A stretch of 64,000 nt of DNA from an uncultured Candidatus Saccharibacteria bacterium (GTDB lineage Bacteria > Patescibacteriota > Minisyncoccia > CAIUEV01 > JAHKAQ01): NCBI GenBank assembly GCA_964598205.1, contig CAZRBB010000003.1:115186-179185 (forward strand). Reading direction: 5' to 3'. Shown piece after piece: positions 2,788 to 28,194 of this stretch. The notes below the pieces were generated by a model, which was given only the letters and a program-made list of their open reading frames with translations, ran no database searches and had not been told where the DNA came from. The translations under genes and the position numbers were made by a program. Positions within the stretch are counted from its first letter, which is position 1; every line of letters starts with the position of its first letter.

Positions 2788-4368
2788 GTGGTTTTGTTTT
2801 TTATTTGCTTGCGGTTTTGGCGTCAATTAAACATTGAATTGGTGAGTATAGGACTTGTTTTGGTCTTTCTCTTTATCTTGATAGCATCGATCATTACACC
2901 TCAATTTGTGGTTTTTTTTCTTGTTCTAAATTTGTTTTTGGGATTTTCTTTGTCTTTGTTTCAGATGGTGATTGTTTTTCTTCCAAAATTTAAAGCAAAA
3001 TACGGTAAAGTTAAAAATCAACCATTTGTTTCGGTTTTTGTTCCCGCCTACAACGAACCTCCAATTATCTTGATGCATGTTTTGGATATGCTATCTCAAA
3101 TGGACTATAAGAGATTCGAAGTGTTGGTAATAGACAATAATACCGAGGACCCCGATATTTGGAAGCCTGTTTTATCTTTTGTAAAGACATTGGGTCCCAA
3201 ATTTAAATTTTTTCATGTAGATGGTCTTCCTGGATTCAAGGCGGGAGCTCTTAATTATCTTCTGGATCACATTAATCCCAAATCAAAATATGTAGCGGTA
3301 ATTGATGCTGATTATGTTGTAAAAAGGGATTTTTTAAAGAAATCTTTGGCCTATTTTACGGATAATAAAACGGCTTTTGTGCAGTTTCCTCAACGATATA
3401 GAAATATTGCTAACGGAAACAAATCAATTGCCGACGAGTATCGACATTTTTTTTGTGTTTATATGAATATGGCTAATCATTTAGATTGTGTGCCGTCAAC
3501 GGGAACGGTGAGTGTTTATAAATTAGCTGTTTTGCGTCAAATAGGAGGATTTCATGGTGATGTATTGACCGAGGATGCTGATTTTGGATTAAGGATTTAT
3601 GGTGCTGGGTATCAAGGTTTATATGTTGATCAATCGATGGGCTATGGTCTTATGCCTTATGATCTGGAAGCTTATAAAAAACAAAAGTGGCGCTGGGCTT
3701 TTGGAAATGCGCAAACATTAAAAACTCTTTTTTTATTGCTTCCTAAAATTCCATTTAAATCTTGGATTGGTTTTCTTTCTCATCTTACAGCTTGGCATCA
3801 TTTTAATTTTTTGCCTTTTGCTACAATAGCCGCTTTTCCGGTAATTCTATTTTTAAAGATTCCGATTGTTCATTCCTATGAGCAAATTTTAATGTTTGCT
3901 TCCCTGTCTATTCTTATAACACTAGTGTCTAAGATGTTTCTTTTTTGGGCATCGCTAAGGAAGCAAAAAAAATGTTTTATTCGAGCTATTCGAGCATTCA
4001 TTGTCCATATGGGCATGACGCTAGTGTATTCTGGAGCTTGGATTTCTTATGCTTTTCAGAAAAACTTTTCTTTTGAAAGAACTAATAAATTTGTTTTAGA
4101 AAAAAAGCCAAGCCTACTAAAGAATACATATAGCGAGTTTTTTCTTGGAAGCTGGTTTCTTGTCGGCGCGGTTTTATCGGCGTATTATGGTTACGCAATG
4201 GAGACGATTGTTTTTTTACTTTCTGCTTCTGCGCTGTTTTCTATTTACTTTGTTTATTGGAAGATAGTTCCAACAAAAAAATACTCCAAGGATATTCTTT
4301 TTGGGTTGGAAAATAAATATCAAGCGTTTATTGACAAAAATACAGGGAAAATTCGGGGTAGCGGTTGA
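2788..4368 (+). CDS. Family 2 glycosyltransferase, membrane-bound processive type (cellulose/chitin synthase-like). The start codon is uncertain (TTG/GTG).
   Basis: VPAYNEPP, DADY(V), and Q(K)xRW as KQKWRWAFG; N- and C-terminal TM helices. Confidence 0.75.
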   Translation: MVLFFICLRFWRQLNIELVSIGLVLVFLFILIASIITPQFVVFFLVLNLFLGFSLSLFQMVIVFLPKFKAKYGKVKNQPFVSVFVPAYNEPPIILMHVLDMLSQMDYKRFEVLVIDNNTEDPDIWKPVLSFVKTLGPKFKFFHVDGLPGFKAGALNYLLDHINPKSKYVAVIDADYVVKRDFLKKSLAYFTDNKTAFVQFPQRYRNIANGNKSIADEYRHFFCVYMNMANHLDCVPSTGTVSVYKLAVLRQIGGFHGDVLTEDADFGLRIYGAGYQGLYVDQSMGYGLMPYDLEAYKKQKWRWAFGNAQTLKTLFLLLPKIPFKSWIGFLSHLTAWHHFNFLPFATIAAFPVILFLKIPIVHSYEQILMFASLSILITLVSKMFLFWASLRKQKKCFIRAIRAFIVHMGMTLVYSGAWISYAFQKNFSFERTNKFVLEKKPSLLKNTYSEFFLGSWFLVGAVLSAYYGYAMETIVFLLSASALFSIYFVYWKIVPTKKYSKDILFGLENKYQAFIDKNTGKIRGSG

Positions 4369-4397
4369 AAACTGAGATATAAAATTACAACATATTT

Positions 4398-5432
4398 ATG
4401 AAGATAGCTCTATTGGCCCCTCTTTGGAAAAAGATTCCACCAGATAAATATGGAGGTTCGGAGTTGGTGGTTGCTAATTTGGCCAAAGGGCTAACAAACC
4501 TTGGGCACGAAGTAACAACCTTTGCTTGTGCTGGATCAAATGTTTCTGGGAAACTTATTCCGGTGATCCCAGAGCCAATGTACGATTTAGTTGGTGGATT
4601 TGATTGGAACGGGATTAAGCAGTACGAATTTTTATCTTTTTTTGAATTAGGGAAACATATTGGGGATTTTGATGTGGTACATAACCACATGGGGTTTCAT
4701 CCTGTTGCGCTTGCTCCTTTTATTTCCATTCCTTTTGTAACAACTCTGCACAGCAGTTTACCACCAGACTTTCCTTTTTTGGCTGAAGCTTTCCGGGAGT
4801 ATCCTTTTATTTCGATTAGTAATTCTCAACGGAATTTGGCTCCTAAATTAAATTATGTAGAAACGGTTTATCATGGAATTGATACAGAGGCTTTTCTAAA
4901 AGATTTTAGAAAACATGACAATGAATTTTTCTTTTTAGGGACTCTTTCTAAAAATAAAGGAATTGATATTGCAGTGCGAGGAGCTAAGGCATTGGGTGCG
5001 CGACTCACCATTGCTGGAGAGATCCGTGAGGAGGATAAGGCGTTTTTGGAAAGCGAGGTTCTCCCTTTTGTTGATGGGGAACGGATTCGTTTTATAGGAG
5101 AGGTTTCTCATGCGGAAAAAATGAAGCTTCTTAATAATTCTTCGGCGCTTCTTTTTCCATCGCGCTGGAGTGAAGCTTTTGGCTTGGTAATGGTTGAGGC
5201 TCTGGCTTGTGGTACGCCGGTAGTGGCCTTAAACAACGGGGCGGTATCCGAGGTTTTGCGTCACGAGAAAACTGGTTTTATTGCGGAAAACGAAGATCAA
5301 TTCATTGAATCAATGAAGCGAGTAGGAGAGATTTCTCGGGAAGCGTGTCGTGATGAGGCTGAAAAGAGATTTGATATTTCGGTTATGGCAACTAATCATT
5401 TAGAGGTATATAAAAAATTAATAACAAAATAA
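4398..5432 (+). CDS. Glycosyltransferase family 4 (GT-B)
   Basis: C-terminal EAFGLVMVEALACGTPVVA motif typical of GT4 and a GT-B fold layout. Tandem paralog of the next gene. Confidence 0.8.
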   Translation: MKIALLAPLWKKIPPDKYGGSELVVANLAKGLTNLGHEVTTFACAGSNVSGKLIPVIPEPMYDLVGGFDWNGIKQYEFLSFFELGKHIGDFDVVHNHMGFHPVALAPFISIPFVTTLHSSLPPDFPFLAEAFREYPFISISNSQRNLAPKLNYVETVYHGIDTEAFLKDFRKHDNEFFFLGTLSKNKGIDIAVRGAKALGARLTIAGEIREEDKAFLESEVLPFVDGERIRFIGEVSHAEKMKLLNNSSALLFPSRWSEAFGLVMVEALACGTPVVALNNGAVSEVLRHEKTGFIAENEDQFIESMKRVGEISREACRDEAEKRFDISVMATNHLEVYKKLITK

Positions 5433-5434
5433 CA

Positions 5435-6496
5435 ATGAAAATAGCTATTGTTTCTCCGGTAATGGTTGTGGTCCCTCCTATAAAATATGGTGGGATCGAA
5501 AGAATAATCGATGAATTGGCTCAGGGATTAGCTCAAAGAGGGCACGAAGTAACGGTTTTTTGTGCTGGAGGCTCTACTCTTACGGGAGAAAATATTACTC
5601 GAGTTGAATGTTCGCCGTATCCTACTAAAGATCGATTAGAGGAAAATCGTGCTTGGGAAATTCGGCAATTACTTTTGGTACTTGGTCGGCAAGGTGAATT
5701 CGATGTGATCCATTTTAATTATGAACCGCTGGTGTGCCGATTGAATGCCGAGGGAACAAGTGTGAATTTGCTTGATTTTTTCACCACTCCGGTGGCGGCG
5801 ACTTTTCACAATACAACGCATATTCCCGAGCATGTGGAATATTACAAAAAAACTGAATCGCTATATCGTCATAACATGATATTGATCAGCGAAAATCAGC
5901 GACAACCGGTATCGTTTTTTCCCAACTCTAGCGTGATCTATAATGCTTTGGCCCTAAAGGAGTATCCCTTTGAAGAAAAAAAGGAAGATTTTTTGTTGTT
6001 TCTTGGAAGAATTACTCCCTTTAAGGGAATTATTGAAGCAATAGAAGTGGCTAAGAAAACAAAGATTCCTCTAAAAATTGTAGCAAAGGTAGATCCTGTT
6101 GATAAAGAATTTTACGAAAAAGAAGTGGCGCCATTGATTGATGGAGAATTAGTGCAGTATATGGGGGAAGCGGATTTTAAAGAAAAAATTGAATATTACA
6201 AGAAGGCGCGTTGTCTTTTGTTTCCTATTCTTTGGGAAGAGCCGTTTGGCTTGGTAATGATTGAAGCCTTGGCTTGTGGTACGCCGGTAATTGCTTTCCG
6301 TCGGGGATCGGTTCCAGAGATTATTCAAGACGGTGTTAATGGGTTTGTGGTGGAGAATACGGAAGAAATGATAGAGGCGCTAGACAAGTTGAAGAATATA
6401 TTGCCAGTTAATTGTAGGAAAAGTGTAGAAGAACGATTTACGGTGGAGCGAATGGTGGGAGAATACGAAAATCTTTTAATTAAAATTGCTAAATAG
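5435..6496 (+). CDS. Glycosyltransferase family 4 (GT-B), paralog
   Basis: EPFGLVMIEALACGTPVIA motif. N-terminus shares KYGG(S/I)E with the upstream GT4. Confidence 0.8.
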   Translation: MKIAIVSPVMVVVPPIKYGGIERIIDELAQGLAQRGHEVTVFCAGGSTLTGENITRVECSPYPTKDRLEENRAWEIRQLLLVLGRQGEFDVIHFNYEPLVCRLNAEGTSVNLLDFFTTPVAATFHNTTHIPEHVEYYKKTESLYRHNMILISENQRQPVSFFPNSSVIYNALALKEYPFEEKKEDFLLFLGRITPFKGIIEAIEVAKKTKIPLKIVAKVDPVDKEFYEKEVAPLIDGELVQYMGEADFKEKIEYYKKARCLLFPILWEEPFGLVMIEALACGTPVIAFRRGSVPEIIQDGVNGFVVENTEEMIEALDKLKNILPVNCRKSVEERFTVERMVGEYENLLIKIAK

Positions 6497-11659: not shown

Positions 11660-13414
11660 ATGAAGAAAAAGACAGTACAAATTAAAAAATCCTCTCCAAT
11701 TTTAGTAACGGCAGCGTTGCCTTATATTAATAATGTTCCCCATTTGGGGCATATTGCTGGTTCTCATTTGCCGGCGGATATTTTTACTCGTTATCTTCGG
11801 GCTACTGGCAAGGAAGTATATTTTGTAGGTGGTTCGGATGAGCATGGAACGCCTTCGGTAATCGCTGCTAAAGAATTGGGAGTTCCGGTACAGGTTTTGG
11901 CTGATCGATTGCACGCTATTCATAAAAAAGTTTACCAGAAATTGGGGATTAGTTATGACAATTACTCCCGGACTTCTTTAGCTAAACATCATTTAGTAAC
12001 ACAGGATTTTTTTAGGGAGATCAAGAAGAAATCTGAATTGATATTAGAAAAAGAAGCGGAAATGTATTACTGCGAAACGGATAAGATGTTTTTGCCGGAT
12101 CGTTTTGTGGTGGGGGTTTGCCCAAAGTGTGGCTATGATTCGGCGAATGCCGATCAATGCGAGGTTTGTAGCCAAGTGATTGCACCAGGAGAATTAATTT
12201 CTCCTTGTTGTAAGGTTTGTGGCTTGCCGCCAATAATGAAAAAAACTAAACATCTCTATCTTGATTTAGAAAAACTCTCTCTGTTATTGAATCGTTGGAT
12301 TGAAGGCAAAAAGAAAATATTTAGGCCATATGTTTATAGTTCGGCTAAAAAGTGGATTAACGAAGGGCTTAGAGCCCGATCTATTACTAGAGATCTTACC
12401 TGGGGAGTGAAGGTGCCCCAAGAAGGATTTTTAGATAAGGTTTTTTATGTTTGGTTTGATGCGCCGATTGGTTATTTAACTTTTACCAAAGAGATAAAAG
12501 AAGATTTAGAAAAAAGACTGTGGCAAGATAGAGAAGCGCGCATTTATCATTTTGTAGGGAAAGACAATATTCCTTTTCATACTATTTTTTGGCCAGCATT
12601 ACTTTTGGCGGAAGGCAAACATAATCTTCCTTATAATGTGATTGGACTGAATTATTTGAATTACGGTGGCAAGAAATTTTCTAAAAGCAAGGGGGTAGGA
12701 GTGTTTTGTTTGAACTTGCTTGATTCGCCTATTAACATTGATACTTTGCGAGCGTATTTGGCAACAGTGATTCCCGAAACCAAGGATTCTGATTTTAAAT
12801 GGGAAGAGTACCAAGAACATACCAACAGTGAGGTGATTGGAAAGTTGGGTAATTTTCTGAATAGAACTCTTTCCATGATAGATAATTATTTTGGCGGAAA
12901 GTTAGAAGCGGATTTGGGGGCTAAGAAAAGATTAACGGACCTAGATAAAAAAATTCTAAAAGAAATCAAAAATTCTTCTAAAAAGGTAGGCGGATATTTA
13001 GTAAAGGCAGAAATTCGGAAGGGATACAGGGCGGTAATGGATTTAGCACGGGCAGGGAATGTTTATTTTGATCGCTCCAAGCCGTGGGAATTAATGAAGT
13101 TAGGAAAAAGGGAAGAGGCAAAATTGGTATTGCGCTTGGCTTTCTTTTTGGCAAGATCACTGATGATTACGGCAACGCCTTTTATGCCGGAAGGAATGGC
13201 GGAAATTTGGCAAAAGCAGTTTGGCTTTTTGGGATCGCCGGGAGATTGTGGTCGGTGGGAGGAGGCAGGCGAAGTAGATTTTTCTGTGACTTACCGAACC
13301 AAAAAACCCAAGCCTTTTTATTCTAGAATAGAGGATAAAGATTTAGAGGAATTAGAAAAAGATTTGGGACAGAAGCCGGCTTTAAGAGAAATAGTAGGCT
13401 CAATTAAGAATTAG
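11660..13414 (+). CDS. metG: Methionyl-tRNA synthetase
   Basis: HIGH-type motif PHLGHIAG, KMSKS as KFSKSKG, and zinc knuckle CPKCGY...CEVC. Confidence 0.9.
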   Translation: MKKKTVQIKKSSPILVTAALPYINNVPHLGHIAGSHLPADIFTRYLRATGKEVYFVGGSDEHGTPSVIAAKELGVPVQVLADRLHAIHKKVYQKLGISYDNYSRTSLAKHHLVTQDFFREIKKKSELILEKEAEMYYCETDKMFLPDRFVVGVCPKCGYDSANADQCEVCSQVIAPGELISPCCKVCGLPPIMKKTKHLYLDLEKLSLLLNRWIEGKKKIFRPYVYSSAKKWINEGLRARSITRDLTWGVKVPQEGFLDKVFYVWFDAPIGYLTFTKEIKEDLEKRLWQDREARIYHFVGKDNIPFHTIFWPALLLAEGKHNLPYNVIGLNYLNYGGKKFSKSKGVGVFCLNLLDSPINIDTLRAYLATVIPETKDSDFKWEEYQEHTNSEVIGKLGNFLNRTLSMIDNYFGGKLEADLGAKKRLTDLDKKILKEIKNSSKKVGGYLVKAEIRKGYRAVMDLARAGNVYFDRSKPWELMKLGKREEAKLVLRLAFFLARSLMITATPFMPEGMAEIWQKQFGFLGSPGDCGRWEEAGEVDFSVTYRTKKPKPFYSRIEDKDLEELEKDLGQKPALREIVGSIKN

Positions 13415-13486
13415 TAATTCAGTATTGTTCGGTTTGTAATCGAGTTTGAGGGAGGGGGCACCTTAAAAAAACAGGAGGATCGCCTA

Positions 13487-13837
13487 ATGAGAAAGAAAAA
13501 TGGTGGAAATGGAAGGAATGGAAAGGGAAGTGGCGGTGGAATATCGTTGATTCGTTGCCTAGTTTGCTTGGATATCCATGGTTGTTCTTCTGAAAAATGG
13601 GGAGTTTGCTTTTGTGGGCTACTGTGCCGGCGTCGTCGTCGCTGTTTAATCCCATGGAGAAAAGATCTTATTTTTGTTTATCAAACTTGTATTCTATGTG
13701 CCGTTAAAAGTCAGATTCTTTTTAAAGGAACCAGTTTTTTAAACCCATTGGACGAACTCTTTCAATTATTGCCACCGGACTTTTCGGAAATTGTACCGGT
13801 AGAAATTGAAGCGGCGAAATTAAAAGAGTGCTGTTGA
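13487..13837 (+). CDS. Small Cys-rich protein (116 aa, 13 Cys, Gly-rich N-terminus); hypothetical
   Basis: Complete ORF with a strong SD aggagg 8 nt upstream, inside a GC-rich islet. The competing antisense ORF has no SD. Confidence 0.35.
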   Translation: MRKKNGGNGRNGKGSGGGISLIRCLVCLDIHGCSSEKWGVCFCGLLCRRRRRCLIPWRKDLIFVYQTCILCAVKSQILFKGTSFLNPLDELFQLLPPDFSEIVPVEIEAAKLKECC

Positions 13838-13904
13838 TTTTGGTGGAAGCGAAGTTTTTTGTTGAATCAGACCTTTTGTTGATCAATACGAGGGAGGTGA
13901 TTCG

Positions 13905-13973
13905 ATGAGCAAAGGGATGAAAAAATGGTTGAAATCTAAATGGTGGAGACAGGCAAAGAAAAGAAAATGTTAA
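13905..13973 (+). CDS. Candidate 22-aa cationic Trp/Lys-rich peptide MSKGMKKWLKSKWWRQAKKRKC
   Basis: Perfect SD gagggaggtga 4-5 nt upstream of the ATG. No homology claimed. Confidence 0.3.
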   Translation: MSKGMKKWLKSKWWRQAKKRKC

Positions 13974-14077
13974 TAATAAACGGAACGGCTCAAAATGAGC
14001 GCAAGACGGCCATCAATTGGAGAAGATGGTCGTTTTAATTTTGTTTTGATTTCTGTCTTTAATTATTTTGGCGGAAA

Positions 14078-14125
14078 TTGAAAAGAGACCCAAGGAAGCA
14101 AATTATAAGCTTTCTGGGGTCTCTT
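14078..14125 (-). terminator. Rho-independent terminator for the minus-strand secreted-protein gene
   Basis: 9-bp stem aagagaccc/gggtctctt, followed on the minus strand by TTTT. Confidence 0.55.
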
Positions 14126-14141
14126 GTTGGGGGTTATTGGG

Positions 14142-15281
14142 TTAGTTGCCGATACACTGGCAATTTAAAAATTTCCACTCTACCGTTTCCCAGCTATAAG
14201 CGCCATTTCTGCTGGGAATAGGAACGGTTCTGGCGTGGACTTCGGCGCTGTGTCCGGAGCAAGGAGTGGGCGTGGTGTTGTAATAAATCACTTTTGCCTC
14301 CCACTTCATTCTGCCTTGGTTCCATTGCAAGGAACCGGAGACATCGCAATTCCCCTTGGTACTATCATTTTTCTGCTGGAAAATAGGGGTTAGCCCATTG
14401 TTGCAGCCGTCCAAGACACTCCAATATTGGGTGTTCCGGATTTCCAGTTCTGCTCCCGGAGTGCCTGGTATCCCCAATTCCCAGAAATATCCAAAAATCG
14501 GGTGCGTTGGACATGGTTCTGGTGCGCCATTGTAAGTCAAGATCAAGCGCAGCCAGCCCCAATGGGAGGTGTAGACCAATGATCCCGAAATGTATTCGTT
14601 GCTTTCGGTGCTTACCGGACATTGAAGCATGGCCGGATAATTTTCGCATCCGGTAATGCATTCAAATTTTTTCCACTCCACTGTCTCCCAGGCAGAAGTG
14701 CCAGGGCGATTTGGGATGCGGATGTTTTGGGAGTGTTTCCCAGCCGGATGAATCTCGCAGGGTGGCGGTGCCCCATTGTAAGAGATAGCTTTCGCTTCCC
14801 ATTTTTGAGTACCCGCATTCCACTGCAAGGAACCGGAAACATCGCAGCCACTTTTCTGGGAATCATTTTGGGCTTCAATAATTACTTGGAGCCCGTTGGT
14901 GTATGTTCCGCAATTGGTACTTTCATCACAGGTGAATCTTTTCCACCGTGTGGTTTCTCCTATTTCCGTCCCTGGTCCAGGAGGAAGATTCTGTAAATAT
15001 ATCCAGGCCTCATGTTCCGGGCAAGGGACTGGCGTTTGATAGTACAGGAGAAGCCCGGCAATCCATTTTTCTCCTGACCACCAAAAGCCTGCGTCCATTT
15101 GGCAACTGTTCCAGCTGCCATCCGTTACTCCTGTATGAACTTCGGGGTAGGTAGCGGTGGTGGAATTTATTGTTTTGGCGGTCGTATTGGCCGCGGCCAT
15201 GTTAGTGTTTAAAAAACTTGCTCCAATCAAAAAAACGATCAGGGCGACTAATACGGTGAAACCGGCTGTTCTTTTTTCCAT
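14142..15281 (-). CDS. Secreted Cys/Trp-rich protein with internal tandem ~60-90 aa repeats; function unknown
   Basis: N-terminal signal/TM segment. Repeats of type CDVSGSLQWN.G..KWEAK.I.YN..P.PC..H......IP.R.G..WETVEWK.F.C, containing (QxW)-like motifs. Coding sequence is ~50% GC versus ~35% for the flanks. Confidence 0.7.
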   Translation of the reverse strand: MEKRTAGFTVLVALIVFLIGASFLNTNMAAANTTAKTINSTTATYPEVHTGVTDGSWNSCQMDAGFWWSGEKWIAGLLLYYQTPVPCPEHEAWIYLQNLPPGPGTEIGETTRWKRFTCDESTNCGTYTNGLQVIIEAQNDSQKSGCDVSGSLQWNAGTQKWEAKAISYNGAPPPCEIHPAGKHSQNIRIPNRPGTSAWETVEWKKFECITGCENYPAMLQCPVSTESNEYISGSLVYTSHWGWLRLILTYNGAPEPCPTHPIFGYFWELGIPGTPGAELEIRNTQYWSVLDGCNNGLTPIFQQKNDSTKGNCDVSGSLQWNQGRMKWEAKVIYYNTTPTPCSGHSAEVHARTVPIPSRNGAYSWETVEWKFLNCQCIGN

Positions 15282-15459
15282 GGGTCTCTCCTTGTCTCTT
15301 CTTGGTTGTGGTTTGGTGCATCAAAAAATATCCGTGAACATTCTAGATATTGGTAAGGGGCTGAGAACTCGGTATTTAATAACAAAAAAGCGATTATGTC
15401 AAGCTAAGCTGCCGATTTTCACAGGCATTTTCCGATTTTTGGGTGTTTGTTTTTTGATT

Positions 15460-18661: not shown

Positions 18662-19399
18662 TTATTTTTTAATCAGTTTTTTTAAAGAAGGACCAAAGAC
18701 TAAAGAGCCTAACAATAAAAAAGAAATTAAAAAAATAAAAATCAGGAAATTAAATTCAAAAAGGGAAGCGCCTAAGAGTACATAAAAAATAGTTCCGGGA
18801 ATAATTCCTAGGGCAGTAGCAAAAAAATAATCACGAAAACTGATTTTAAAAAGTCCTAAAGAAAAATTAAGAGGGGCAAAGGGGAGGAAGGTGAGTAACC
18901 TTAGAACGACAATGGTTTTAAAGCTGTCTTTTTCTAGTCTTATTTTATAAGGGTTAATTTTTTTTAATTGTTTTTGGAATAGTTTGTTCAACCAGGTGGA
19001 TCCTAGATATTTAGCAACGCCAAAAGAAATGATTGCTCCTAAAAGTGCTCCTGTAAAAGTCCAAAGAAGGCCACCGAGAGTACCAAAAAGAGCAACAGCG
19101 GAAAGACTTAGCGGGTAAACTGGAACAAATAGAATAGAAACAAAAGCGAATAATAAAACAAAAAAGAGTGGTGCCAAAAAACCAAACTCAGTTATTCTTT
19201 CTTTTAGATTAAGGCTTTCTTGCCAGTTGGTTTGGGAGAGAAAAAAAGAAAAGATTCCTAAAATAAAAATGAGCAGAATGAAAAGAAATATTCTAACGGA
19301 GCTATGATTAGTGGAAAGCTTGGACATATAAATCAAAAACTTCTTAATCGGAACTGTTCTTGGTAGTATTGAAAATGCTGGGTGTCTCTTTTCCCCCAT
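18662..19399 (-). CDS. DedA/TVP38 (VTT domain) family membrane protein
   Basis: Polytopic membrane protein, 245 aa, with a VTT-like core. Confidence 0.55.
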   Translation of the reverse strand: MGEKRHPAFSILPRTVPIKKFLIYMSKLSTNHSSVRIFLFILLIFILGIFSFFLSQTNWQESLNLKERITEFGFLAPLFFVLLFAFVSILFVPVYPLSLSAVALFGTLGGLLWTFTGALLGAIISFGVAKYLGSTWLNKLFQKQLKKINPYKIRLEKDSFKTIVVLRLLTFLPFAPLNFSLGLFKISFRDYFFATALGIIPGTIFYVLLGASLFEFNFLIFIFLISFLLLGSLVFGPSLKKLIKK

Positions 19400-19531
19400 A
19401 GTATTCGGCTAACCGAAAGATGGTTTCTAAATGCTCTTTCGGCTTTGGCTATTTTTTTTAATCTAAAAAGAGAACGCCTAAGTTATTATAGTGGATTTTT
19501 TTTCCAGGAGAAATTTTTATCTATTTACAAA

Positions 19532-20488
19532 ATGTGGAAATATTTTAAATTTTTATTGCTGGGGCTTGTTTTGCTGGGAATTGCTAGCTTGATGATGTTT
19601 TGGATGCGATTTTCCAAAGAAAAAGCTCGTTTATTGGCGGTTCGCAATGATTTAAAAGAAGTTGTTTTTTGCCAAGATGGGCTTTGTGTTCCAACAGAAA
19701 CAAAGAAGGCTTTTCTAGCTGATTTTTTAGAGGAAAAAAAGATCAAAAAGGAAGAAGGGGACTATCTTTTTCCGCGAGTGGAATCGGCGCTTTATTCAGG
19801 AGCAACGGTCTTTTTGAATCGAAAAGTGCCAGTAGAAATCTTAGCTGACGGTCAGAAGAGAGAGGTAAAGACATTTGGATTAACGGTAGCCGATGTTCTG
19901 GCGGAAGAAGGGGTGGTTTTAAGCCATTTAGACTTAGTTTTACCTGGGAAAGAGGTGCGGCCGTTTTTGGGGATGAAGGTGGAAGTGGTGAGGATTAATG
20001 TAGAAGAAGTGGCGGAAAAAGAGGCAATTCCCTTTAAAACACAGGAAAAAGAGGACAATACGCTGAAATGGAGGACTACCAAGATAGGGACAGAAGGGCA
20101 AAATGGGGAAAAAGAGATTATTTACCGCATTACTTATACCAATGGAAAAGAGAGCAAGAGAGAGAAAATTGCCACTAAAACAACAAAAGAACCAGTAAAT
20201 AAGGTGATATTAAATGGTACAAAATTAGTTTTGGCTCCGGCTTACAAGGGAAGGGCTAGTTGGTATGCTTTTAATGGAGAAATGAGCTGTGCTTCACTAA
20301 AACATCCTTTTGGAACTTGGCTTAAGGTAACTAATCGAATTAATGGGAAAAGTGTTTTAGTGGAGGTAAAAGACAGCGGTCCTTATTCGCCAGACAAAAT
20401 CATAGATCTAGACAAAACAGCCTTTAAAAAGCTGGGCGATTTGGGTCAAGGGGTAATGGATGTGAAAATAGAAGAAATTTTGGACTAA
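19532..20488 (+). CDS. rlpA: RlpA-like lipoprotein (double-psi beta-barrel) with an upstream G5-like domain and N-terminal TM. The start is placed at ATG 19532 rather than the track's 19382.
   Basis: C-terminal GRASWYAF...HPFGTWLKVTNRINGKSVLVEVKDSGPY..KIIDLDKTAFKKLG matches the RlpA DPBB signature. Confidence 0.75.
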   Translation: MWKYFKFLLLGLVLLGIASLMMFWMRFSKEKARLLAVRNDLKEVVFCQDGLCVPTETKKAFLADFLEEKKIKKEEGDYLFPRVESALYSGATVFLNRKVPVEILADGQKREVKTFGLTVADVLAEEGVVLSHLDLVLPGKEVRPFLGMKVEVVRINVEEVAEKEAIPFKTQEKEDNTLKWRTTKIGTEGQNGEKEIIYRITYTNGKESKREKIATKTTKEPVNKVILNGTKLVLAPAYKGRASWYAFNGEMSCASLKHPFGTWLKVTNRINGKSVLVEVKDSGPYSPDKIIDLDKTAFKKLGDLGQGVMDVKIEEILD

Positions 20489-20516: not shown

Positions 20517-21533
20517 TTAATCTAGGGAAATTGTTTTTGGGGCCTTCTTCCAAGGCTTGTTTTTTTGCCAATTTTTAATCCAAGATTCGGGGATTACTAG
20601 GCTTAAAGCGGCTAAATCGGGTAAATGTTCGCCTAAAGCGGTGGGCAGGATCTCTACTTTTTGAGCAAGAGCGGGGAAAGATTCGTCTAAAAATGTCTTT
20701 TTTACAAGGGGTAAGAGGATTTTTTGGTTATTAGCAAAGACACTACCTCCTAAAATAAAGACTTTAGCGTCTAAGATGGCGTTTAGAGCAGAAAGGGCGC
20801 GACCAAAGTATTTAGCGGCTTCTTGCACTACTTTTAGGGCTTTGGGGTCCTTTTTTTGATAAAGCGTAAAGACTTCGGCGGTAGTTTTCCCTTGGCCATA
20901 GTCTCGAGCAATGGCTACCCCAGAACTCAAGGCTTCTAGGTGTCCTGTTTTACTACAGCCACATTGAGGACCGTTTTCTTTCATTAAAAAGTGGCTAAAA
21001 TGAGGAGCATTGCCATCTTTTCCGTCTATTAAGTGGCCATCTACAAAGGCGCCGGCACCAATTCCGGTGCTCCAAGTAGAATAAACTAGGTTATTTTCTC
21101 CTTGATGGGAGCCAAAAAGTCGCTCGGCAGCTACGGCAGCTACGCAATCGTTTTTGATTACTAGAACAGGAAAGGCTTTTTTTAGCTCAGTTTCTAGTGG
21201 AATATAGGTCCAATTGTTGGGAATAATACCCCTCTTTTTAGCTAAGCCACCGCAAAGATTAGGAGCAACTAGCACTCTTTCTTTGCCTTTTTGGGCAAAG
21301 GGACTGCAAGTACTGACTCCTAGGGCCTTAATTTGGGACTTTGAGACGCCGATTTTTTTAGCCAGAAAGGTGATTAATTCAATGGCCTGAGTGGGGATAG
21401 CGTTGTTTTTACCAGTGTTTTTAACCTTTTGGAAGACTTTTCCTAGAATACCGGATTCATTGATTAGGCTGGCGGTTATTTTAGTACCACCAATGTCTAG
21501 GGCAGCAATAAGAGGGTTTTTGGGAGAGTTCAT
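20517..21533 (-). CDS. ROK-family sugar kinase (glucokinase/fructokinase-like)
   Basis: N-terminal ALDIGGTK and the ROK zinc motif CGCSKTGHLEA. Confidence 0.8.
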   Translation of the reverse strand: MNSPKNPLIAALDIGGTKITASLINESGILGKVFQKVKNTGKNNAIPTQAIELITFLAKKIGVSKSQIKALGVSTCSPFAQKGKERVLVAPNLCGGLAKKRGIIPNNWTYIPLETELKKAFPVLVIKNDCVAAVAAERLFGSHQGENNLVYSTWSTGIGAGAFVDGHLIDGKDGNAPHFSHFLMKENGPQCGCSKTGHLEALSSGVAIARDYGQGKTTAEVFTLYQKKDPKALKVVQEAAKYFGRALSALNAILDAKVFILGGSVFANNQKILLPLVKKTFLDESFPALAQKVEILPTALGEHLPDLAALSLVIPESWIKNWQKNKPWKKAPKTISLD

Positions 21534-21759
21534 AGGGGAAAGTTAAGAATTATGATGTTATTATAGCGGAAAGAGGTGGTTAATCAATTGTGGATGGAGA
21601 ATAATGAATAATTGACTAGCAGCAATATTAAAATTCTAAGGAATACATTCTAACGGGCTTAGCTTTTAGGAGTACGCTACGCTTCGCCCAGCGGCTTCGC
21701 TTGCTCGAGTTGGCTTTCTTTGATTTATAATCGATTTTTGGAAAATTGGGTGGAAGGGG

Positions 21760-21788
21760 TTGCCAGAAAGTGTTATTTATGATATAGT
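21760..21788 (+). promoter_or_regulatory. Sigma70-like promoter TTGCCA-N17-TATAGT with extended -10 TG
   Basis: Hexamers at 21760-21765 and 21783-21788 with an exact 17-nt spacer. A near-identical promoter lies at 24330-24358. Confidence 0.6.
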
Positions 21789-21892
21789 ATGATGTTGTAT
21801 TACGGAGAGGCAGATTAAGAAAGAATCGGAAAGAATGAGAGAACTTTAAAAATCTGCCGAATAAAAATCAATTACCTTGAGGGAGGTCAAAC

Positions 21893-22828
21893 ATGTTTGG
21901 AATTGCAAGAGGAAGAAAACGGGAAAGAAGTTTGGCTATTGGGGCGACTGGCAGTAACGGTCGCCAGGTGTCCGGTATTTTTACGGACATCGATAATACA
22001 TTTGTTTATGATGGCTGCAAAGCGGCTACAGTGGCTGTTCTGGGCCTGGCGTGCAAACGCCGGATGCCCGTAGTTGCAGTGACCGGGGCGGATTTAAATT
22101 CGGTTTTTTCACGAATCATGGCAGACGAACTGCCATACTTTAGGGCCCTGGCTACTTCTTGCGGAACGGAGATTTATTTTTTGTCCAAAGGAGGGTATTA
22201 CCAGGATCATCATTGGGATAACCAGCTCCGAAGCAGGTTCAACCGGAAAGAAGTTTTTTTCCGGGCGGAGAATTTGGCAAGGGAATGGGCTGTAACAAGC
22301 CCAGGCTGTGAACTGGAAATTCAGAAGAAGAAGGTTACCGAGAAGTACAAGGTAAGCTTCTATTTTAAAGCCAGCGACGGCTTGGTAGCGTCGATGGCGG
22401 CAGAGGAAATTTTAAGCTACTTTTCTGAGTACCAGTTGGCTTGGTGTGAGGATATTACTTGGGAACCGAAAGACGGTTTGCGGCGGTACTGTGTGGATGT
22501 GTTAGCCGCAAACAAGCAAGACGCGGTAGAATACATTACGGAGCAACTTGGGATCACTGATGGCATTGTAGCTGGAGATTCTGGCAACGATGCCGAAATG
22601 GTTCTGGATTGCGATCGGCGTTTTGTCGGAGTAGTTGTTGGCGGTGCGAGGGAAGAGCTGAAAGAAGCGCTCCGCAAGCGTGATCCGCGGCCAGTCGGCA
22701 AAATCCAGGACAGCAGAGGTTTTTCTCGGTACTACCTTGACGGACGCTTTGTCCTGGTGGACGAACATCCGGACAGGAGAGGGCCGGAGTCAATTTTAGC
22801 AGCTCTGGAGGTGCTTTACAGCGCTTAA
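21893..22828 (+). CDS. HAD-IIB phosphatase, sucrose-phosphate phosphatase-like
   Basis: Motif I TDIDNTF and motif IV AGDSGNDAEM. SD gagggagg. GC-rich coding sequence. Immediately upstream of the SPS-like gene. Confidence 0.75.
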   Translation: MFGIARGRKRERSLAIGATGSNGRQVSGIFTDIDNTFVYDGCKAATVAVLGLACKRRMPVVAVTGADLNSVFSRIMADELPYFRALATSCGTEIYFLSKGGYYQDHHWDNQLRSRFNRKEVFFRAENLAREWAVTSPGCELEIQKKKVTEKYKVSFYFKASDGLVASMAAEEILSYFSEYQLAWCEDITWEPKDGLRRYCVDVLAANKQDAVEYITEQLGITDGIVAGDSGNDAEMVLDCDRRFVGVVVGGAREELKEALRKRDPRPVGKIQDSRGFSRYYLDGRFVLVDEHPDRRGPESILAALEVLYSA

Positions 22829-22897
22829 GGAGTAAAAATCAAAAAAACCAAAAAACAGAAGCAGGCTCTGGGGCGACTTGGGGCCGAGGAGTGGATA

Positions 22898-24268
22898 ATG
22901 GAAGCGACAGCAAAAACAGCGACAGGACGGCAAGAGGCGGGGAAAGCCATTTACGTGGTTAGTACCCATGGTTACTTTGACCTGAGTTCGGAGACCGGCA
23001 GTGTATCGACAGCCGGTCGGCCGGACACCGGTGGGCAGACGGTATATACCGTCGAGCTTGCCAAGGCGTTGGGCCGGCTGGGCTACCTGGTATTTCTCGT
23101 GGTCCGGTGGTTTGACCCGTCCAAAAGAGAGTTGCAAAAGCTGGGCGATAATGCCTGGTTGCTGCGACTTCGGGGCGGACCTTGGGGATTCGTTCCCAAG
23201 GAAAGGATCTACTCGTTACTTCCGGAAATTTCCGACAATCTGGTCTCCTTTATAGAGGATGACTGGAAGGAAATGTTTAGGGAAGCAGGCGATAAGGCAC
23301 CAGAAAATGTAGATCCGGCACTGATCCATGGCCACTACATCGATGGCGGATTAGTAGCCGTTTCCGTGGCCCGCCATTTCCGTTGTCCGGTTTTTTGGAC
23401 CAGTCATTCGCTGGGTGCATTGAAAAGAGAGCGGATGGGTGGTGATCCCGAAAAGATGGAAACGGAGTTCAACTTTCGTCATCGGATAGAACAGGAAGTA
23501 GCGGTGATGAAGAAGGTCGCTAAACATGGCGGACAAACAGTGACCGCCAAAACAGAACCGGGGGACATTGAGCGCCTTTATGGGCTTGAGTTGCCGGATC
23601 TGCAGTTTATTCCGCCGGGGGTGGACACAAAAAAGTTTCATCCACTGCCATGTGGGAAAGAGATTGATCCGATTCCCGGTTGGCCAGCAGTTGGTGGACC
23701 TGTTGTCTTAATGGGTGGCCGGATTGCTAAGACCAAGGGCTATGAGCTAGCGCTCTATGCGTTTCACCGAGTGTTGCGTGAATTTCCAGACGCAAGCTTG
23801 GTGATATTTGGTGGATCGGATAACCCGTCTGGAGAGGAACAAGCTGTTCTCCAGGTAATGGACGATTACCGGGAAAAAAAAGGGATTGCCCGGCGCGTCT
23901 TTTTTCTTGGTGGCTTGACCCATGACCAGCTTCCAAAAGTTTACCGGCGAGCAGACTTGTTTTTGCTGCCGAGCAAGCACGAACCTTTTGGGATGGTACC
24001 GCTGGAGGCAGCAGCTTGCGGAACACCGGTAGTGGTCAGTTGCCATGCCGGGATTGCTTCGGAACTGAAGGACGGCGAGAATTGTTTGATCGTTGATCCC
24101 GAGGATACCCACGAGTTGGCAGAAGCGATGGCGACGCTGTTGCGCTCTTGCGAATGCGCCAAAAAAGTCGCTAAAAACGGTCACTTGACCGTCACCCGGG
24201 ATTATTCTTGGGAAGGCATCGCCAGGAGGCACTTAATTTTTTGGCGCGCCAATGGCGCCGTGATTTGA
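22898..24268 (+). CDS. Sucrose-phosphate synthase-like GT4 glycosyltransferase (GT domain only)
   Basis: GRPDTGGQTVYTVELAKALG, IHGHYIDGG, SHSLGALKRERM, PPGVDTKKF and EPFGMVPLEAAACGTPVV align with the SPS/sucrose-synthase family signatures. Confidence 0.85.
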   Translation: MEATAKTATGRQEAGKAIYVVSTHGYFDLSSETGSVSTAGRPDTGGQTVYTVELAKALGRLGYLVFLVVRWFDPSKRELQKLGDNAWLLRLRGGPWGFVPKERIYSLLPEISDNLVSFIEDDWKEMFREAGDKAPENVDPALIHGHYIDGGLVAVSVARHFRCPVFWTSHSLGALKRERMGGDPEKMETEFNFRHRIEQEVAVMKKVAKHGGQTVTAKTEPGDIERLYGLELPDLQFIPPGVDTKKFHPLPCGKEIDPIPGWPAVGGPVVLMGGRIAKTKGYELALYAFHRVLREFPDASLVIFGGSDNPSGEEQAVLQVMDDYREKKGIARRVFFLGGLTHDQLPKVYRRADLFLLPSKHEPFGMVPLEAAACGTPVVVSCHAGIASELKDGENCLIVDPEDTHELAEAMATLLRSCECAKKVAKNGHLTVTRDYSWEGIARRHLIFWRANGAVI

Positions 24269-24329
24269 ACCTTATAGCAGGGAGGAAGAAGAGAAGCCTA
24301 ATTGCTTTTACTTCTACCTCCCTTTTTTG

Positions 24330-24358
24330 TTACCAATAAAATAAAAGTATGATATAGT
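24330..24358 (+). promoter_or_regulatory. Sigma70-like promoter TTACCA-N17-TATAGT with extended -10 TG
   Basis: Shares the 15-mer tatgatatagtatga with the promoter at 21760-21788. Confidence 0.6.
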
Positions 24359-24429
24359 ATGAAAAATAGATCGGAGCACCTTACCAAAAACAAACAACCC
24401 CCAACATCTGGTTGAGGGAGGTACTTTAC

Positions 24430-25191
24430 ATGGGAACTCTTGTATTCGATATCGACGGAACATTGACTAAGGCAGGAGGGTTCGCGGCCGTTCCATGTGA
24501 ACCTCCAACAGAAGTAAAAACCGCTATCCAAGCACAGCAACGAAAGCATCAGATCGTGCTGTTAACTGGACAACCTTTGCGCGTGGCTACCGGGATGGCT
24601 AGAATGCTGGATCTTCCGCATTGTTTGGTAGCACCAGACTATGGGGCGTTCGTTTGTAGCCCAAGAAATCTGGCAGAAAAGGAGTTTCTGATTAATAGAA
24701 AGGCTTTAGAGGCTTTAATGTTGGTTAAGAATTTTTTAGTGCCGTCGTTTCAAAAATTAGGAGGCAGAATTGACTCCCGCGACGGCATCGGCATTATCAG
24801 TTTTATTTGGGAGTGTCGAGATGGTTGGGCCGATGCTCAGCGGCTCGTGGTCTCTTCTGCCTACGACAAGTTTGTGGCTAATAACGGTTTACGGTTTCAG
24901 TGGAACAGGATTGATTTGTCCATGAATGTAATGCCGGCCGAGCTTTCAAAGGGACTGATTGCTTCCAGGTATTCCGATATTCTGGTGGCAGCCGGAGACA
25001 CCAGCAGCGATCTGCCGGTAATTCAAAAAGCTCTTTTTCCCATAGTTACCCATGACGAGGGAATGTCGATTCATCCTGATCTTGCGGCAGTCGCTGTGGA
25101 TCGGGGATATATCGCTTCCCCAGAAGAACATCATGGATGGGGGTTGATTTCAGGACTCCAAGCTGCACAAGCGGCTGGGATACTGAATTAA
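24430..25191 (+). CDS. HAD-IIB phosphatase (second SPP/Cof-like paralog). The start is placed at ATG 24430.
   Basis: FDIDGTLT and AAGDTSSDLP motifs. SD gagggagg 8 nt upstream. Confidence 0.7.
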   Translation: MGTLVFDIDGTLTKAGGFAAVPCEPPTEVKTAIQAQQRKHQIVLLTGQPLRVATGMARMLDLPHCLVAPDYGAFVCSPRNLAEKEFLINRKALEALMLVKNFLVPSFQKLGGRIDSRDGIGIISFIWECRDGWADAQRLVVSSAYDKFVANNGLRFQWNRIDLSMNVMPAELSKGLIASRYSDILVAAGDTSSDLPVIQKALFPIVTHDEGMSIHPDLAAVAVDRGYIASPEEHHGWGLISGLQAAQAAGILN

Positions 25192-25333
25192 AACTAGGAG
25201 CGGCTTTGCCTTTGGGCAATCGCCGCTTCTTTTAGTTTTGGTGATTTGTTATTATTATGGGGTTCATGCATCTTTGATTAGATGAATTTTGCACTAATTT
25301 GTTGTTTGTAGATTTAAAACATAATTAAAAACT

Positions 25334-26404
25334 ATGAGTCGACACAACTATGGAGTGCGGATCGATGCTAGCGGGACATATCACGGTATGCGTTCTCTTG
25401 TTTTGGAAAACGAAAAATTACGGATTACTGTATTGTTAGATAAGGGAACGGATATTGTTGAGTTTTTGCATAAGCCAACAGATACTGATTTTATGTGGAA
25501 ATCACCACTGGATTGGCATTCGGCCGGTCAATTTTTGCCTACTACTCATAGTTCTATTAGCAGTTTTATGGATTCTTTTGGCGGTGGGTGGCAAGAATGT
25601 TTTCCTAGCGGTGGTCCGCATACTCAATACAAAGGCACAGAGATTGGTTTGCACGGTGAGGTGTGCACTATTCCTTGGGACTGCATTATTACTAAGGATT
25701 CTCCGGAAGTTGTGGAAGCGGTTTGTACTGTTAGAACTTATCGCACCCCTTTTATAATCAAAAAAACATTGAGACTAAAACGGGAAAGTTCAGTGCTAGA
25801 AATGGACGAAGAAATTACCAATGAAGGAAAGGAAGATTTACCTTATATGTGGGGACATCACCCTTCTTTTGGCGAAAATATTTTAGATGATTCTTGCCGA
25901 ATTGATTTACCGGCCGGCAAGGTAGAAACTTACAGTAAAGTTCAAGATAAAATTTCTTCCCAGTTTGCTCCGGAAACTAAGGGTAAGTGGCCGTTTTTAA
26001 AAAACATTAAAGGGGAGCTGATTGACAATTCAAAGGTTCTTCCGGCTAGTAAAAAAACGCACGATCTTTTATTTATCTCTGGATTAAAAGCGGGTTGGTA
26101 CGCCTTGACTAACACCAAGAAAAAATTGGGCATTGGAATGAGTTGGGATGAAAAACTTTTTCCCTATGTGTGGTTTTGGCAAGTTTATGGTGGAGGAAGC
26201 GGTTATCCTTGGTATGGTCGAACTTATAATATTGCGCTTGAACCTTGGACCAGCTGGCCCAACGATGGGGTGGAGGTGGCGGTAAAAAATGGAACAGCCC
26301 CTATTCTAAAAGCGGGGAAAACGATTAAAACTAATTTTTCAGCGGTTGTTTATTGTGGGAAAAAAAAGGTTAGTTTAATCGATAGAAAAGGGAATGTTAA
26401 ATAG
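25334..26404 (+). CDS. Aldose 1-epimerase (mutarotase) superfamily protein, DUF4432-like
   Basis: WGHHPSFGEN resembles the mutarotase HPYFN motif. 356 aa. Confidence 0.55.
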   Translation: MSRHNYGVRIDASGTYHGMRSLVLENEKLRITVLLDKGTDIVEFLHKPTDTDFMWKSPLDWHSAGQFLPTTHSSISSFMDSFGGGWQECFPSGGPHTQYKGTEIGLHGEVCTIPWDCIITKDSPEVVEAVCTVRTYRTPFIIKKTLRLKRESSVLEMDEEITNEGKEDLPYMWGHHPSFGENILDDSCRIDLPAGKVETYSKVQDKISSQFAPETKGKWPFLKNIKGELIDNSKVLPASKKTHDLLFISGLKAGWYALTNTKKKLGIGMSWDEKLFPYVWFWQVYGGGSGYPWYGRTYNIALEPWTSWPNDGVEVAVKNGTAPILKAGKTIKTNFSAVVYCGKKKVSLIDRKGNVK

Positions 26405-26508
26405 ATTCTGCTAGGATTCATCTTTTTTCTTGGTGGGCAAGGTTTTTACGACTTATTCATTTGTATTTTTGTTCCTTAAATTCTGTATGATACAATATCT
26501 GTACCGTT

Positions 26509-26604
26509 CGCTTACCGTAATCTAATTACGCCCCGCCTCGGACGGCGGGTATGCTCACTTACTTCTCCGGCTTTGCCTTGAACTATAACCAAATGTGTAA
26601 GTCC
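26509..26604 (+). repeat. Dispersed TIR repeat family, copy B (5'-truncated; carries the GC-hairpin insert ccgcctcggacggcggg)
   Basis: cgcttaccgtaatctaattacgcc...ggctttgccttgaactataaccaaatgtgtaagtcc. Confidence 0.8.
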
Positions 26605-26634
26605 TAATTTTCATAAAATAATTAAAATAAAATT

Positions 26635-28194
26635 ATGTCCATTCCATCTTCTGGCCTAAAGAATAAAGTACAATTGATTACTTATGCCGACAGTCTTGGT
26701 CGGAATTTAAAGGAACTAAATATTGTTTTAGATAATTATTTTAAAGGGGTTGTTTACGGGGTGCATATTCTACCTTTCTATCCGTCTTCTTCGGATCGCG
26801 GCTTTTCTCCTTTAACGCATTTTAAAGTAGATTCGGCTTTTGGAGATTGGGAAGATGTAGAAAGAATCGCTAAAAAGTACGATCTAATGTGCGATTTTAT
26901 TCCGAATCATGTTTCTGCTAAGTCTGATTGGTTTTGTGATTTTTTAGAAAAAGGAGACAAGTCTCTTTATAAAGATTATTTTATTACGGCGGAGAAATTT
27001 TCTAGGCGAATCAAAAAAAATCGAGAAATTTTTCCAGCACTGACCGATTACCTAGAAAGAATTGCTAATAAATTAAGGCGATTAGATATTGTTTTTCATA
27101 AAGGGGGTGTTAATCGTTTTGTGCTAAAAAAAATTTATCGTCCTCGTCCGGGAACACCGTTTGTGGAGTTTAAGTTAAAAGATGGCACAATAAGAAATAT
27201 TTGGTGTACTTTTTCTGCTGATCAGATTGATCTAGATATCAACAATCCCGAAGTTAAGAATCATTTTAAAAAAACTTTAATTTTTTTGGCTGAAAGGGGA
27301 ATAAGATTAGTGCGCTTGGATGCGGTGGGTTATGCAGCCAAAGAGAGAGGAACTAATAACTTTTTAATTCCCGAAACTTATCAGTTGATTGAAGATCTGA
27401 CTAGAATTGCGCATCAGCGAGGAATAAAAATTCTTCCAGAAGTCCATAATCATTACACTTTCCAAATGCAGTTGGCGCGGGCTAAGGGAGTGGATTATAT
27501 TTACGATTTTGCTTTGCCTCTTTTATTAATGAATGCACTTTTTACCAAAAATGTTAAAAATTTAAAACACTGGATTAAGATTAGACCCAAAAAGGCGATT
27601 ACCACCCTAGACACGCACGACGGCTTGCCAGTGCCAGATGTAGAAGATTTAATGCCAGAAGAAGAACGAAAGATGGTGATTAAAAGAATTCGGGAAAATG
27701 GTGGGAATGATGCATTGCGGGCTTCTGGGGCCAATTCCAACAATGTGGATGTTTATCAGATTAATTGCACTTATTATTCTGCTCTAGGGGAAGATGATAA
27801 TAGTTATATTATTGCGCGGGCGGTGCAATTTTTTGTGCCGGGAATTCCCCAAGTTTATTATGTGGGACTTTTGGCTGGCAAAAATGATGCTCAAAGATTA
27901 AATAAAACCGGTATTGGTCGAGACATTAATCGTCATGCTTATACTATTGCTGAAGTAGCGGAAGAAATGAAACGGCCGGTGGTGGAGCGGTTGTTTTGGT
28001 TGATTCGTTTCCGGAATCGCTATCCAGCATTTAATGGTCGATTTTATACCAAGAAAACGGAAGAATCTGCTTTGGTTATAGGATGGAAAAAGGAAACCTG
28101 TTATTGTGAGCTGAGAGTGGATTTTTTAACCAAGAGAGCAATCGTGGAATATAGGGAGAAGAAGTCGGGTAAGCGTCGTCGCCATGAGCTTTAG
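26635..28194 (+). CDS. GH13_18 sucrose phosphorylase family (sucrose, glucosylglycerol or glucosylglycerate phosphorylase)
   Basis: KNKVQLITYADSLG...GVHILPFYPSSSDRGFSP...IPNHVS, RLDAVGYAAKE, LDTHDG, and YQINCTYYSALG...QFFVPGIPQVYYVGLLAGKND closely follow sucrose phosphorylase signatures. Confidence 0.9.
   Translation: MSIPSSGLKNKVQLITYADSLGRNLKELNIVLDNYFKGVVYGVHILPFYPSSSDRGFSPLTHFKVDSAFGDWEDVERIAKKYDLMCDFIPNHVSAKSDWFCDFLEKGDKSLYKDYFITAEKFSRRIKKNREIFPALTDYLERIANKLRRLDIVFHKGGVNRFVLKKIYRPRPGTPFVEFKLKDGTIRNIWCTFSADQIDLDINNPEVKNHFKKTLIFLAERGIRLVRLDAVGYAAKERGTNNFLIPETYQLIEDLTRIAHQRGIKILPEVHNHYTFQMQLARAKGVDYIYDFALPLLLMNALFTKNVKNLKHWIKIRPKKAITTLDTHDGLPVPDVEDLMPEEERKMVIKRIRENGGNDALRASGANSNNVDVYQINCTYYSALGEDDNSYIIARAVQFFVPGIPQVYYVGLLAGKNDAQRLNKTGIGRDINRHAYTIAEVAEEMKRPVVERLFWLIRFRNRYPAFNGRFYTKKTEESALVIGWKKETCYCELRVDFLTKRAIVEYREKKSGKRRRHEL

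Follow-up and report, generated by a model that had tools for sequence, protein, structure and literature searches.

The window considered here is a 64,000-nucleotide stretch of contig CAZRBB010000003.1 (assembly GCA_964598205.1); it is bacterial chromosomal DNA and has RNase P class A and tRNAs. Between the genes for methionyl-tRNA synthetase (MetRS) and FTHFS, it carries on its reverse strand an open reading frame (ORF) that encodes a predicted exported protein of four tandem modules, which is referred to as the target in the following (Table 1). The ORF is a genuine gene, and a protein identical to its product is present on contigs from other samples. A Shine-Dalgarno sequence stands at the regular start codon; the version of another gene caller (P0001, 352 aa) begins at the internal Met28, a start that has no such sequence. 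Directly 3' of the stop codon lies the hairpin of an intrinsic terminator with a folding energy of -20.6 kcal/mol (z = -5.9), which none of 200 shuffled sequences folds equally well (0/200). With its Shine-Dalgarno sequence, its own terminator and a gap of 178 bp to the upstream FTHFS gene, the target gene thus has the appearance of a transcription unit of its own. The mature protein would comprise about 348 aa (38.8 kDa) with an isoelectric point of 5.4. The entire product contains 18 Trp (4.7%) and 15 Cys (3.9%), in agreement with an earlier note on this DNA that had described it as Cys/Trp-rich.

The N-terminus of the target is, as judged by eye, a Sec-type signal for signal peptidase I (SPase I); all signal peptides mentioned here were called by inspection and hydropathy only. 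The basic residues K3/R4 are followed by a hydrophobic stretch (residues 8-24) and by an AxA site with the sequence AAA/N at positions 29-32. Kyte-Doolittle hydropathy exceeds 1.6 in this stretch alone, and the protein has no further membrane segment. In the homologue P0004 the corresponding signal peptide reads MKKLSSFLVFFILLTGASVVLA/A (MKKLSSFLVFF...VLA/A), and a basic-then-hydrophobic export signal is found at the N-terminus of all ten members of the family introduced below, the target included. The earlier note had proposed secretion by a signal peptide, which agrees with these features, and had named cytoplasmic homologues as a finding that would speak against its lectin proposal; the family members instead carry export signals throughout. 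A bacterial lipoprotein was considered and rejected: the target has no Cys before residue 60, so there is no L-x-x-C lipobox. A lipobox-like AVGC occurs in the distant relative P0010 only.

The mature part of the target is composed of four modules of about 80 aa in the order A-B-A'-B', and the two halves of the protein are 44% identical. When aligned, all four modules share invariant W, Y, P-x-P-C, H, P, G, T, W, and C residues, and a hidden Markov model (HMM) derived from the B modules alone detects both A modules with independent E-values of 5e-10 and 6e-8. The core regions of B1 and B2 are identical at 37 of 63 positions (59%) at the protein level and to 61% at the DNA level, which indicates that the duplication is old, not recent. 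Since the B modules of the target and P0004 are 43-56% identical among themselves, the A-B-A-B layout is older than the split between these two proteins; some concerted evolution has possibly occurred. The earlier note had counted three or four modules of about 60-90 aa, two of them near-identical, with conserved QxW-like motifs. The repeats themselves stand, with the number settled at four and the length at about 80 aa. The near-identity does not agree with the values given above, and the supposedly conserved motif, LQW, is confined to B1 and B2 of the target and replaced by ILW, FTW, ITW, LVW or LCW in relatives. Neither the window nor the retrieved loci contain a further copy of the module, as judged by a scan with the module HMM.

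Table 1. Features of the target gene and its product. Positions refer to the window; residue numbers refer to the 379-aa protein; a slash marks the signal peptidase site.
Feature	Position	Strand	Basis
Coding sequence, predicted exported four-module protein, 379 aa	14142..15281	(-)	ORF list
Shine-Dalgarno sequence AAGGAG, 6 nt 5' of the ATG at 15281	15288..15293	(-)	direct sequence reading
Predicted signal peptide, aa 1-31, MEKRTAG-FTVLVALIVFLIGASFL-NTNMAAA/N	15189..15281	(-)	hydropathy, K/R n-region, AxA site
Module A1, aa 44-124, Cys 60, 87, 118, 124	14910..15152	(-)	alignments A2/A3/A6
Module B1, aa 129-212, Cys 146, 175, 208, 212	14646..14897	(-)	alignments
Module A2 (A'), aa 214-293, Cys 257, 293, non-conserved Cys 221	14403..14642	(-)	half-to-half alignment, HMM domains
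Module B2 (B'), aa 295-376, Cys 312, 341, 374, 376	14154..14399	(-)	59% identity to B1 core, HMM domains
Intrinsic terminator, hairpin 14083-14125, then UUUUCAAUUU (U-tract)	14075..14125	(-)	RNA fold

Comparison of sequences indicates that the modules form a real family, which is exported in every member, very rare, and taxonomically scattered. No Pfam family matched the whole target at E <= 10, and no meaningful match was obtained for 17 single modules of the family. Likewise, NCBIfam, PADLOC, and PHROGs gave nothing meaningful for the target or its relatives, and PDB sequences gave no match at E <= 10 with the whole protein or a module profile. Matches to pulA_all-beta (2 of the 17 modules, E of at least 0.019) and DNA_ligase_C were sub-threshold, spanned just 18-30 residues, and were dismissed. 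A word-indexed search of 5.8 billion proteins returned the target protein alone, and three word-indexed searches for homologues returned just the target or the small group of P0011, P0015, and P0014. An exhaustive HMMER search with a two-half profile against 1.84 billion cluster representatives returned 12 proteins, 10 of which are credible. The proteins P0008 and P0009 were discarded as spurious low-complexity or repeat matches, to which the independent HMM described below gives only about 2 bits.

The closest relative, P0004 (364 aa, E 4e-72), has the same four-module layout with 40% identity to the target, and 14 of the 15 Cys and nearly all Trp residues are kept in the alignment. P0005, which originates from a metagenome-assembled genome (MAG) designated 'Patescibacteria group bacterium', and P0006 contain two B-type modules. 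P0007, P0010-P0014, and P0015 have a single module each, P0015 being derived from a Deltaproteobacteria MAG. In P0012, a signal peptide and the module precede a PL14 polysaccharide lyase domain (Pfam E 6e-20), and in P0010 the module is combined with PG_binding_1. An independent HMM, built solely from seven distant single-module proteins of other organisms, assigns 158 bits to the target, with four domains and an E-value of 5e-42 at library size, compared with 7 bits for the best of 500 shuffled controls. The residues W, P, H, P, G, and E do not vary among 17 aligned modules (W154, W161, H178, and E199 of the target are examples), and the family signature can be written as W...W...YN-x-x-P-x-P...H-P...P...G...W-E...[WYF]-[KR]-x-F; in the modules of the target its end reads [WY]-K-x-F. 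With an extra conserved N-terminal strand, N-x-L-E-I-E-V...D-x-S-K, modules of the B type reach a length of about 85 aa. No relative turned up among contigs of viruses or among phage and plasmid records, so that nothing hints at an origin from a mobile element, and a profile search of a genome-contig collection with the alignment of target and P0004 gave no match. A scan of metagenomes added nothing beyond another copy of P0004, and a literature search returned no description of the module family.

The fold of the module is confidently predicted, and no solved structure is related to it. AlphaFold2 (AF2) modelled one module from a 17-row alignment with a predicted local distance difference test score (pLDDT) of 88.2 and a predicted template modelling score (pTM) of 0.72, and an A-B half-unit of 181 residues from a 14-row alignment with a pLDDT of 86.1 and a pTM of 0.69. 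The latter value suggests that A and B are packed together into a single unit. Each modelled module has the order strand0-strand1-strand2-helix-strand3. In A1 of the half-unit, strands at aa 47-51, 61-68, and 73-80 are followed by a helix at 91-98 and a strand at 110-117; in B1, the strands lie at aa 134-138, 147-155, and 160-168, the helix at 179-185, and the last strand at 200-207. Among all PDB chains, the best E-value obtained with Foldseek was 1.1, and the weak structural matches comprise 4xwh, 1np0, 9fyo, 3rcn, 8pxt, 7ezt, 2cbi, 6yhh, 3nsm, and 4a4a.

The distribution of cysteines points to a defined disulfide pattern. In the modules of alignment A3, C1 and C3 either co-occur or are jointly missing; the first Cys of the P0011 module lies one column off C1, and the P0006 fragment does not include the C1 region. 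C2 and C4, the latter being the Cys just after C3, are present together in 8 of 8 modules of the target and P0004 and absent from the other modules, the exception being one fragment with this extra Cys but no C2. This co-occurrence suggests that each module probably forms two disulfides, C1-C3 and C2-C4, and the third module only one. For the target, seven disulfides (C60-C118, C87-C124, C146-C208, C175-C212, C257-C293, C312-C374, and C341-C376) and a free, non-conserved C221 are predicted from these alignments.

The reading that is tentatively preferred here, with a probability somewhat short of even, is that the target binds glycans in a multivalent, non-catalytic manner through its modules, which represent this new family. 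A polysaccharide-related role is suggested by export across the family, by the absence of a match to a catalytic domain for the target in any library scanned, by the fusions to PL14 and PG_binding_1, and by neighbouring glycosidase genes. In P0012, the module precedes the lyase in the usual position of a carbohydrate-binding module (CBM), and together with P0010 this makes just two fusions among about ten relatives, so that a place among the accessory modules of carbohydrate-active enzymes is tentative. The P0004 gene is flanked by a gene for an RpfB-like lytic transglycosylase and by genes encoding GH1, EamA, and a clan-A glycosidase-like protein, a neighbourhood seen in three independent contigs. 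Genes for a GH5 cellulase, a GT4 glycosyltransferase, and Wzy are found near P0010, and the dcw cell-wall cluster adjoins this locus. Carbohydrate binding, as proposed in the earlier note, is thus plausible, on the different grounds of these fusions and glycosidase neighbours.

According to this proposal, the target would be exported via the Sec system as a non-catalytic protein of about 39 kDa with four copies of an alpha/beta module of about 80 residues, each of which would, like a CBM, serve as a small unit for the binding of glycans. Four such units in tandem would allow a multivalent, high-avidity hold on an extracellular polysaccharide, for which a cell-wall polymer or a capsular or exopolysaccharide of the producer, of a neighbour, or of a host cell is a candidate ligand.

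Several observations weigh against glycan binding. Both fusion proteins are distant relatives with E-values of about 5e-4 to 8e-4, close to the limit of what the first search could detect, and the glycosidase neighbours come from two loci only. The target's own neighbours are housekeeping genes encoding MetRS, aspartyl-tRNA synthetase, FTHFS, and S-adenosylhomocysteine hydrolase. The neighbours of P0005 and P0015 are uninformative, as are the gene contexts of P0011, P0013, and P0007. The AF2 models stem from shallow alignments of 14-17 rows, several of which come from the same proteins. The invariant Trp, His, Glu, and Tyr-Asn residues are of the type that lines sugar-binding sites and could do so here, and a purely structural role of these residues is equally possible. 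Finally, a surface-anchoring motif was not found in the target, so that the surface location suggested in the earlier note is no more than possible.

The same architecture might serve to bind proteins, with the modules recognizing a host surface protein or blocking a secreted hydrolase or protease. Such an adhesin or inhibitor would be exported and repetitive as well; it is regarded as rather unlikely, because the PL14 and PG_binding_1 fusions and the glycosidase neighbours at two loci indicate polysaccharides and because the modules bear no likeness to known inhibitor families in Pfam or PDB. A polysaccharide ligand could also be the producer's own wall, to which the modules would fix the target, via peptidoglycan or a secondary polymer, as a structural scaffold or coat. 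The PG_binding_1 domain of P0010 and the adjoining dcw cluster fit this explanation, as does the position of P0004 behind the gene for the RpfB-like wall hydrolase, whose ortholog in the window (43% identity) is located 4 kb from the target; moreover, the target has no separate anchor, so that its retention would depend on the modules. An extremely rare and patchy family would be unusual for a core envelope component, however, the codon composition of the target gene is foreign, and the PL14 fusion suggests a substrate beyond the producer's own wall. An envelope structural protein is judged improbable.

Two further explanations concern known protein classes and are both considered extremely unlikely. 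The earlier note had likened the repeats to beta-trefoil lectins of the ricin-B type, for which the Trp-rich repeats, the paired cysteines, and the resemblance of LQW to QxW in two modules might speak. The period of about 80-85 aa is twice the approximately 40 aa of such lectins, however, every AF2 module contains a helix, and there is no Pfam match at E <= 10; in particular, the ricin-B profiles that the note had proposed for comparison (PF00652, PF14200 and related) match neither the whole protein nor the modules. The predicted structure of the repeat unit, which the note had likewise proposed to consult, has no beta-trefoil or lectin-like fold, and the beta-trefoil assignment is refuted by this model since an all-beta fold of 12 strands is not formed. 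The other class comprises type IV pilin-like proteins, meaning that the target would be a minor pilin or tip adhesin processed at ...KRTAG/FTVLV.... The sequence G-F-T-V-L after a short basic leader is reminiscent of such a site, and type IV pili are the known organelles of host binding in cultivated Patescibacteria (PMC12206443). Processing as a pilin was rejected all the same: the Glu at +5 is missing from G/FTVLV, the motif is absent from P0004 and from other relatives with ordinary signal peptides, no pilus genes are located nearby in the window, and an AxA SPase I site follows the hydrophobic stretch.

The composition of the target gene deviates from its surroundings. Its GC content at third codon positions (GC3) is 0.516, compared with a mean of about 0.33 (SD about 0.03) for 26 ordinary genes of the window. 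This fits an acquisition from a donor with higher GC content in the target's lineage and lends some weight to the horizontal acquisition proposed in the earlier note, but it is not proof. The P0005 gene has a GC3 of 0.41 versus about 0.26 in its genome, whereas that of P0004 (0.35) does not deviate from its background (0.28-0.36). No mobile-element signature was found flanking the target gene. The RpfB-like gene of the window (DUF348-G5-DPBB_1; 19382-20488, (+) strand) is located 4 kb from the target, and its 43%-identical counterpart (L089 6800-7741) lies immediately upstream of P0004. This gene may be a remnant of a shared gene order, and the divergence between target and P0004 (40% identity) resembles that of the shared RpfB-like gene (43%).

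Other parts of the window are of interest in their own right. Three adjacent genes at 21893-25191 (+), with a GC3 of 0.45-0.55 versus the background of about 0.33, encode a sucrose-phosphate-phosphatase-like protein (S6PP), a GT4 enzyme resembling sucrose-phosphate synthase, and a weakly HAD-like protein; this region looks like a foreign sugar-synthesis island. An ORF of 523 aa at 29571-31142 (+), with a GC3 of 0.534, no Pfam match, and no signal peptide, is a second compositionally foreign orphan of the window. Glycosyltransferase genes (GT2 and several GT4) are dense at 2788-6496, 35004-36182, and 50195-51721, and genes for a ROK kinase, a DUF4432 protein, and an alpha-amylase are encoded at 20517-28194. 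Together, these genes indicate an active metabolism of surface polysaccharides and sugars.

Next to the target, a gap of 727 bp (13415-14141) separates the stop codons of the MetRS gene and the target gene and has no Rfam match. It contains a Cys/Arg-rich ORF of 116 codons at 13487-13837 (+) behind AGGAGG and a very basic ORF of 22 codons, MSKGMKKWLKSKWWRQAKKRKC, at about 13906-13974 (+) behind GGGAGGTGA; other gene callers place a gene for 78 aa on the opposite strand. The best matches of the MetRS gene itself (11660-13414, (+) strand) reach at most 52% identity and originate from Clostridia MAGs and from MAGs of DPANN and other archaea, which suggests an archaeal-type or laterally exchanged synthetase. 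Among the relatives, the P0015 and P0011 genes are located directly downstream of an unannotated ORF of 136-148 aa (L087 3506-6348; L088; L096). At the P0015 locus, genes for a ThsB-like TIR protein and for HNH_2 come before this ORF, an arrangement reminiscent of a defence island; at the P0011 locus, a gene for 256 aa with no recorded Pfam match takes the equivalent upstream position. P0015 and P0011 are close relatives, and their shared gene order may reflect simple inheritance.

If the module binds glycans, it would represent a new CBM or lectin family whose fold is unlike that of any solved structure, and it would open a way into a group of exported proteins that otherwise escape annotation. 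If it does not, the target would be just another of the many hypothetical exported proteins, restricted to a lineage, that such genomes commonly encode. A host-attached lifestyle of the producer is plausible given the Patescibacteria relative P0005. Beyond type IV pili, host-cell recognition and binding by cultivated Patescibacteria is described as largely unknown (PMC12206443), and the same holds for attachment mechanisms of ultrasmall bacteria (PMC12206443, PMC10633639). The target is an exported, putatively multivalent protein with foreign codon usage from a family that is also represented in Patescibacteria (P0005), and as such it is a reasonable candidate for testing; its clean architecture, a ligand hypothesis that can be tested, and a possible bearing on how ultrasmall bacteria attach to other cells add to its appeal. 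A role in host attachment is speculation. Its most specific form, a horizontally acquired, multivalent lectin of new fold that is secreted by an ultrasmall Patescibacteria-like bacterium and latches onto, or bridges to, wall or capsular glycans of the host bacterium independently of pili, has to be regarded as a long shot.

Among known systems, CBMs attached to carbohydrate-active enzymes and secreted proteins consisting only of single or tandem CBMs resemble the target in being exported, aromatic-rich, and non-catalytic, with modules that can be arranged in tandem and, in the target, measure about 80 aa. The N-terminal position of the module relative to PL14 in P0012 and the glycosidase genes adjoining two relatives belong to the same picture, and no similarity in sequence or fold to the established CBM families was found for the target modules. 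Lectins with ricin-B repeats (PF00652 / PF14200) are likewise secreted and Trp-rich, with internal repeats and paired cysteines; the target differs from them by four modules in place of a three-fold arrangement, by the longer, helix-containing repeat, and by the lack of a conserved QxW. LysM, SPOR, and PG_binding_1 are also short alpha/beta modules that often occur in tandem in exported bacterial proteins, but the target modules differ in their order of three strands, helix, and strand and match none of them by profile or fold. The N-terminal alpha/beta domain of GH20, GH84, and GH89 hexosaminidases, in which a sheet is packed on helices beside the glycosidase domain, recurs among the weak structural matches to the target models. 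Each testable defining feature of sequence or fold failed for the ricin-B lectins, the known CBMs, the pilins, and the lipoproteins, with the tentative place among accessory modules of carbohydrate-active enzymes as a partial exception, and the target is outside these classes. Its modules are best classed as a new family within a well-known type, the exported repeat binding protein; in function, tandem exported proteins of the CBM or lectin type and small wall-binding repeats are the closest analogues of the target.
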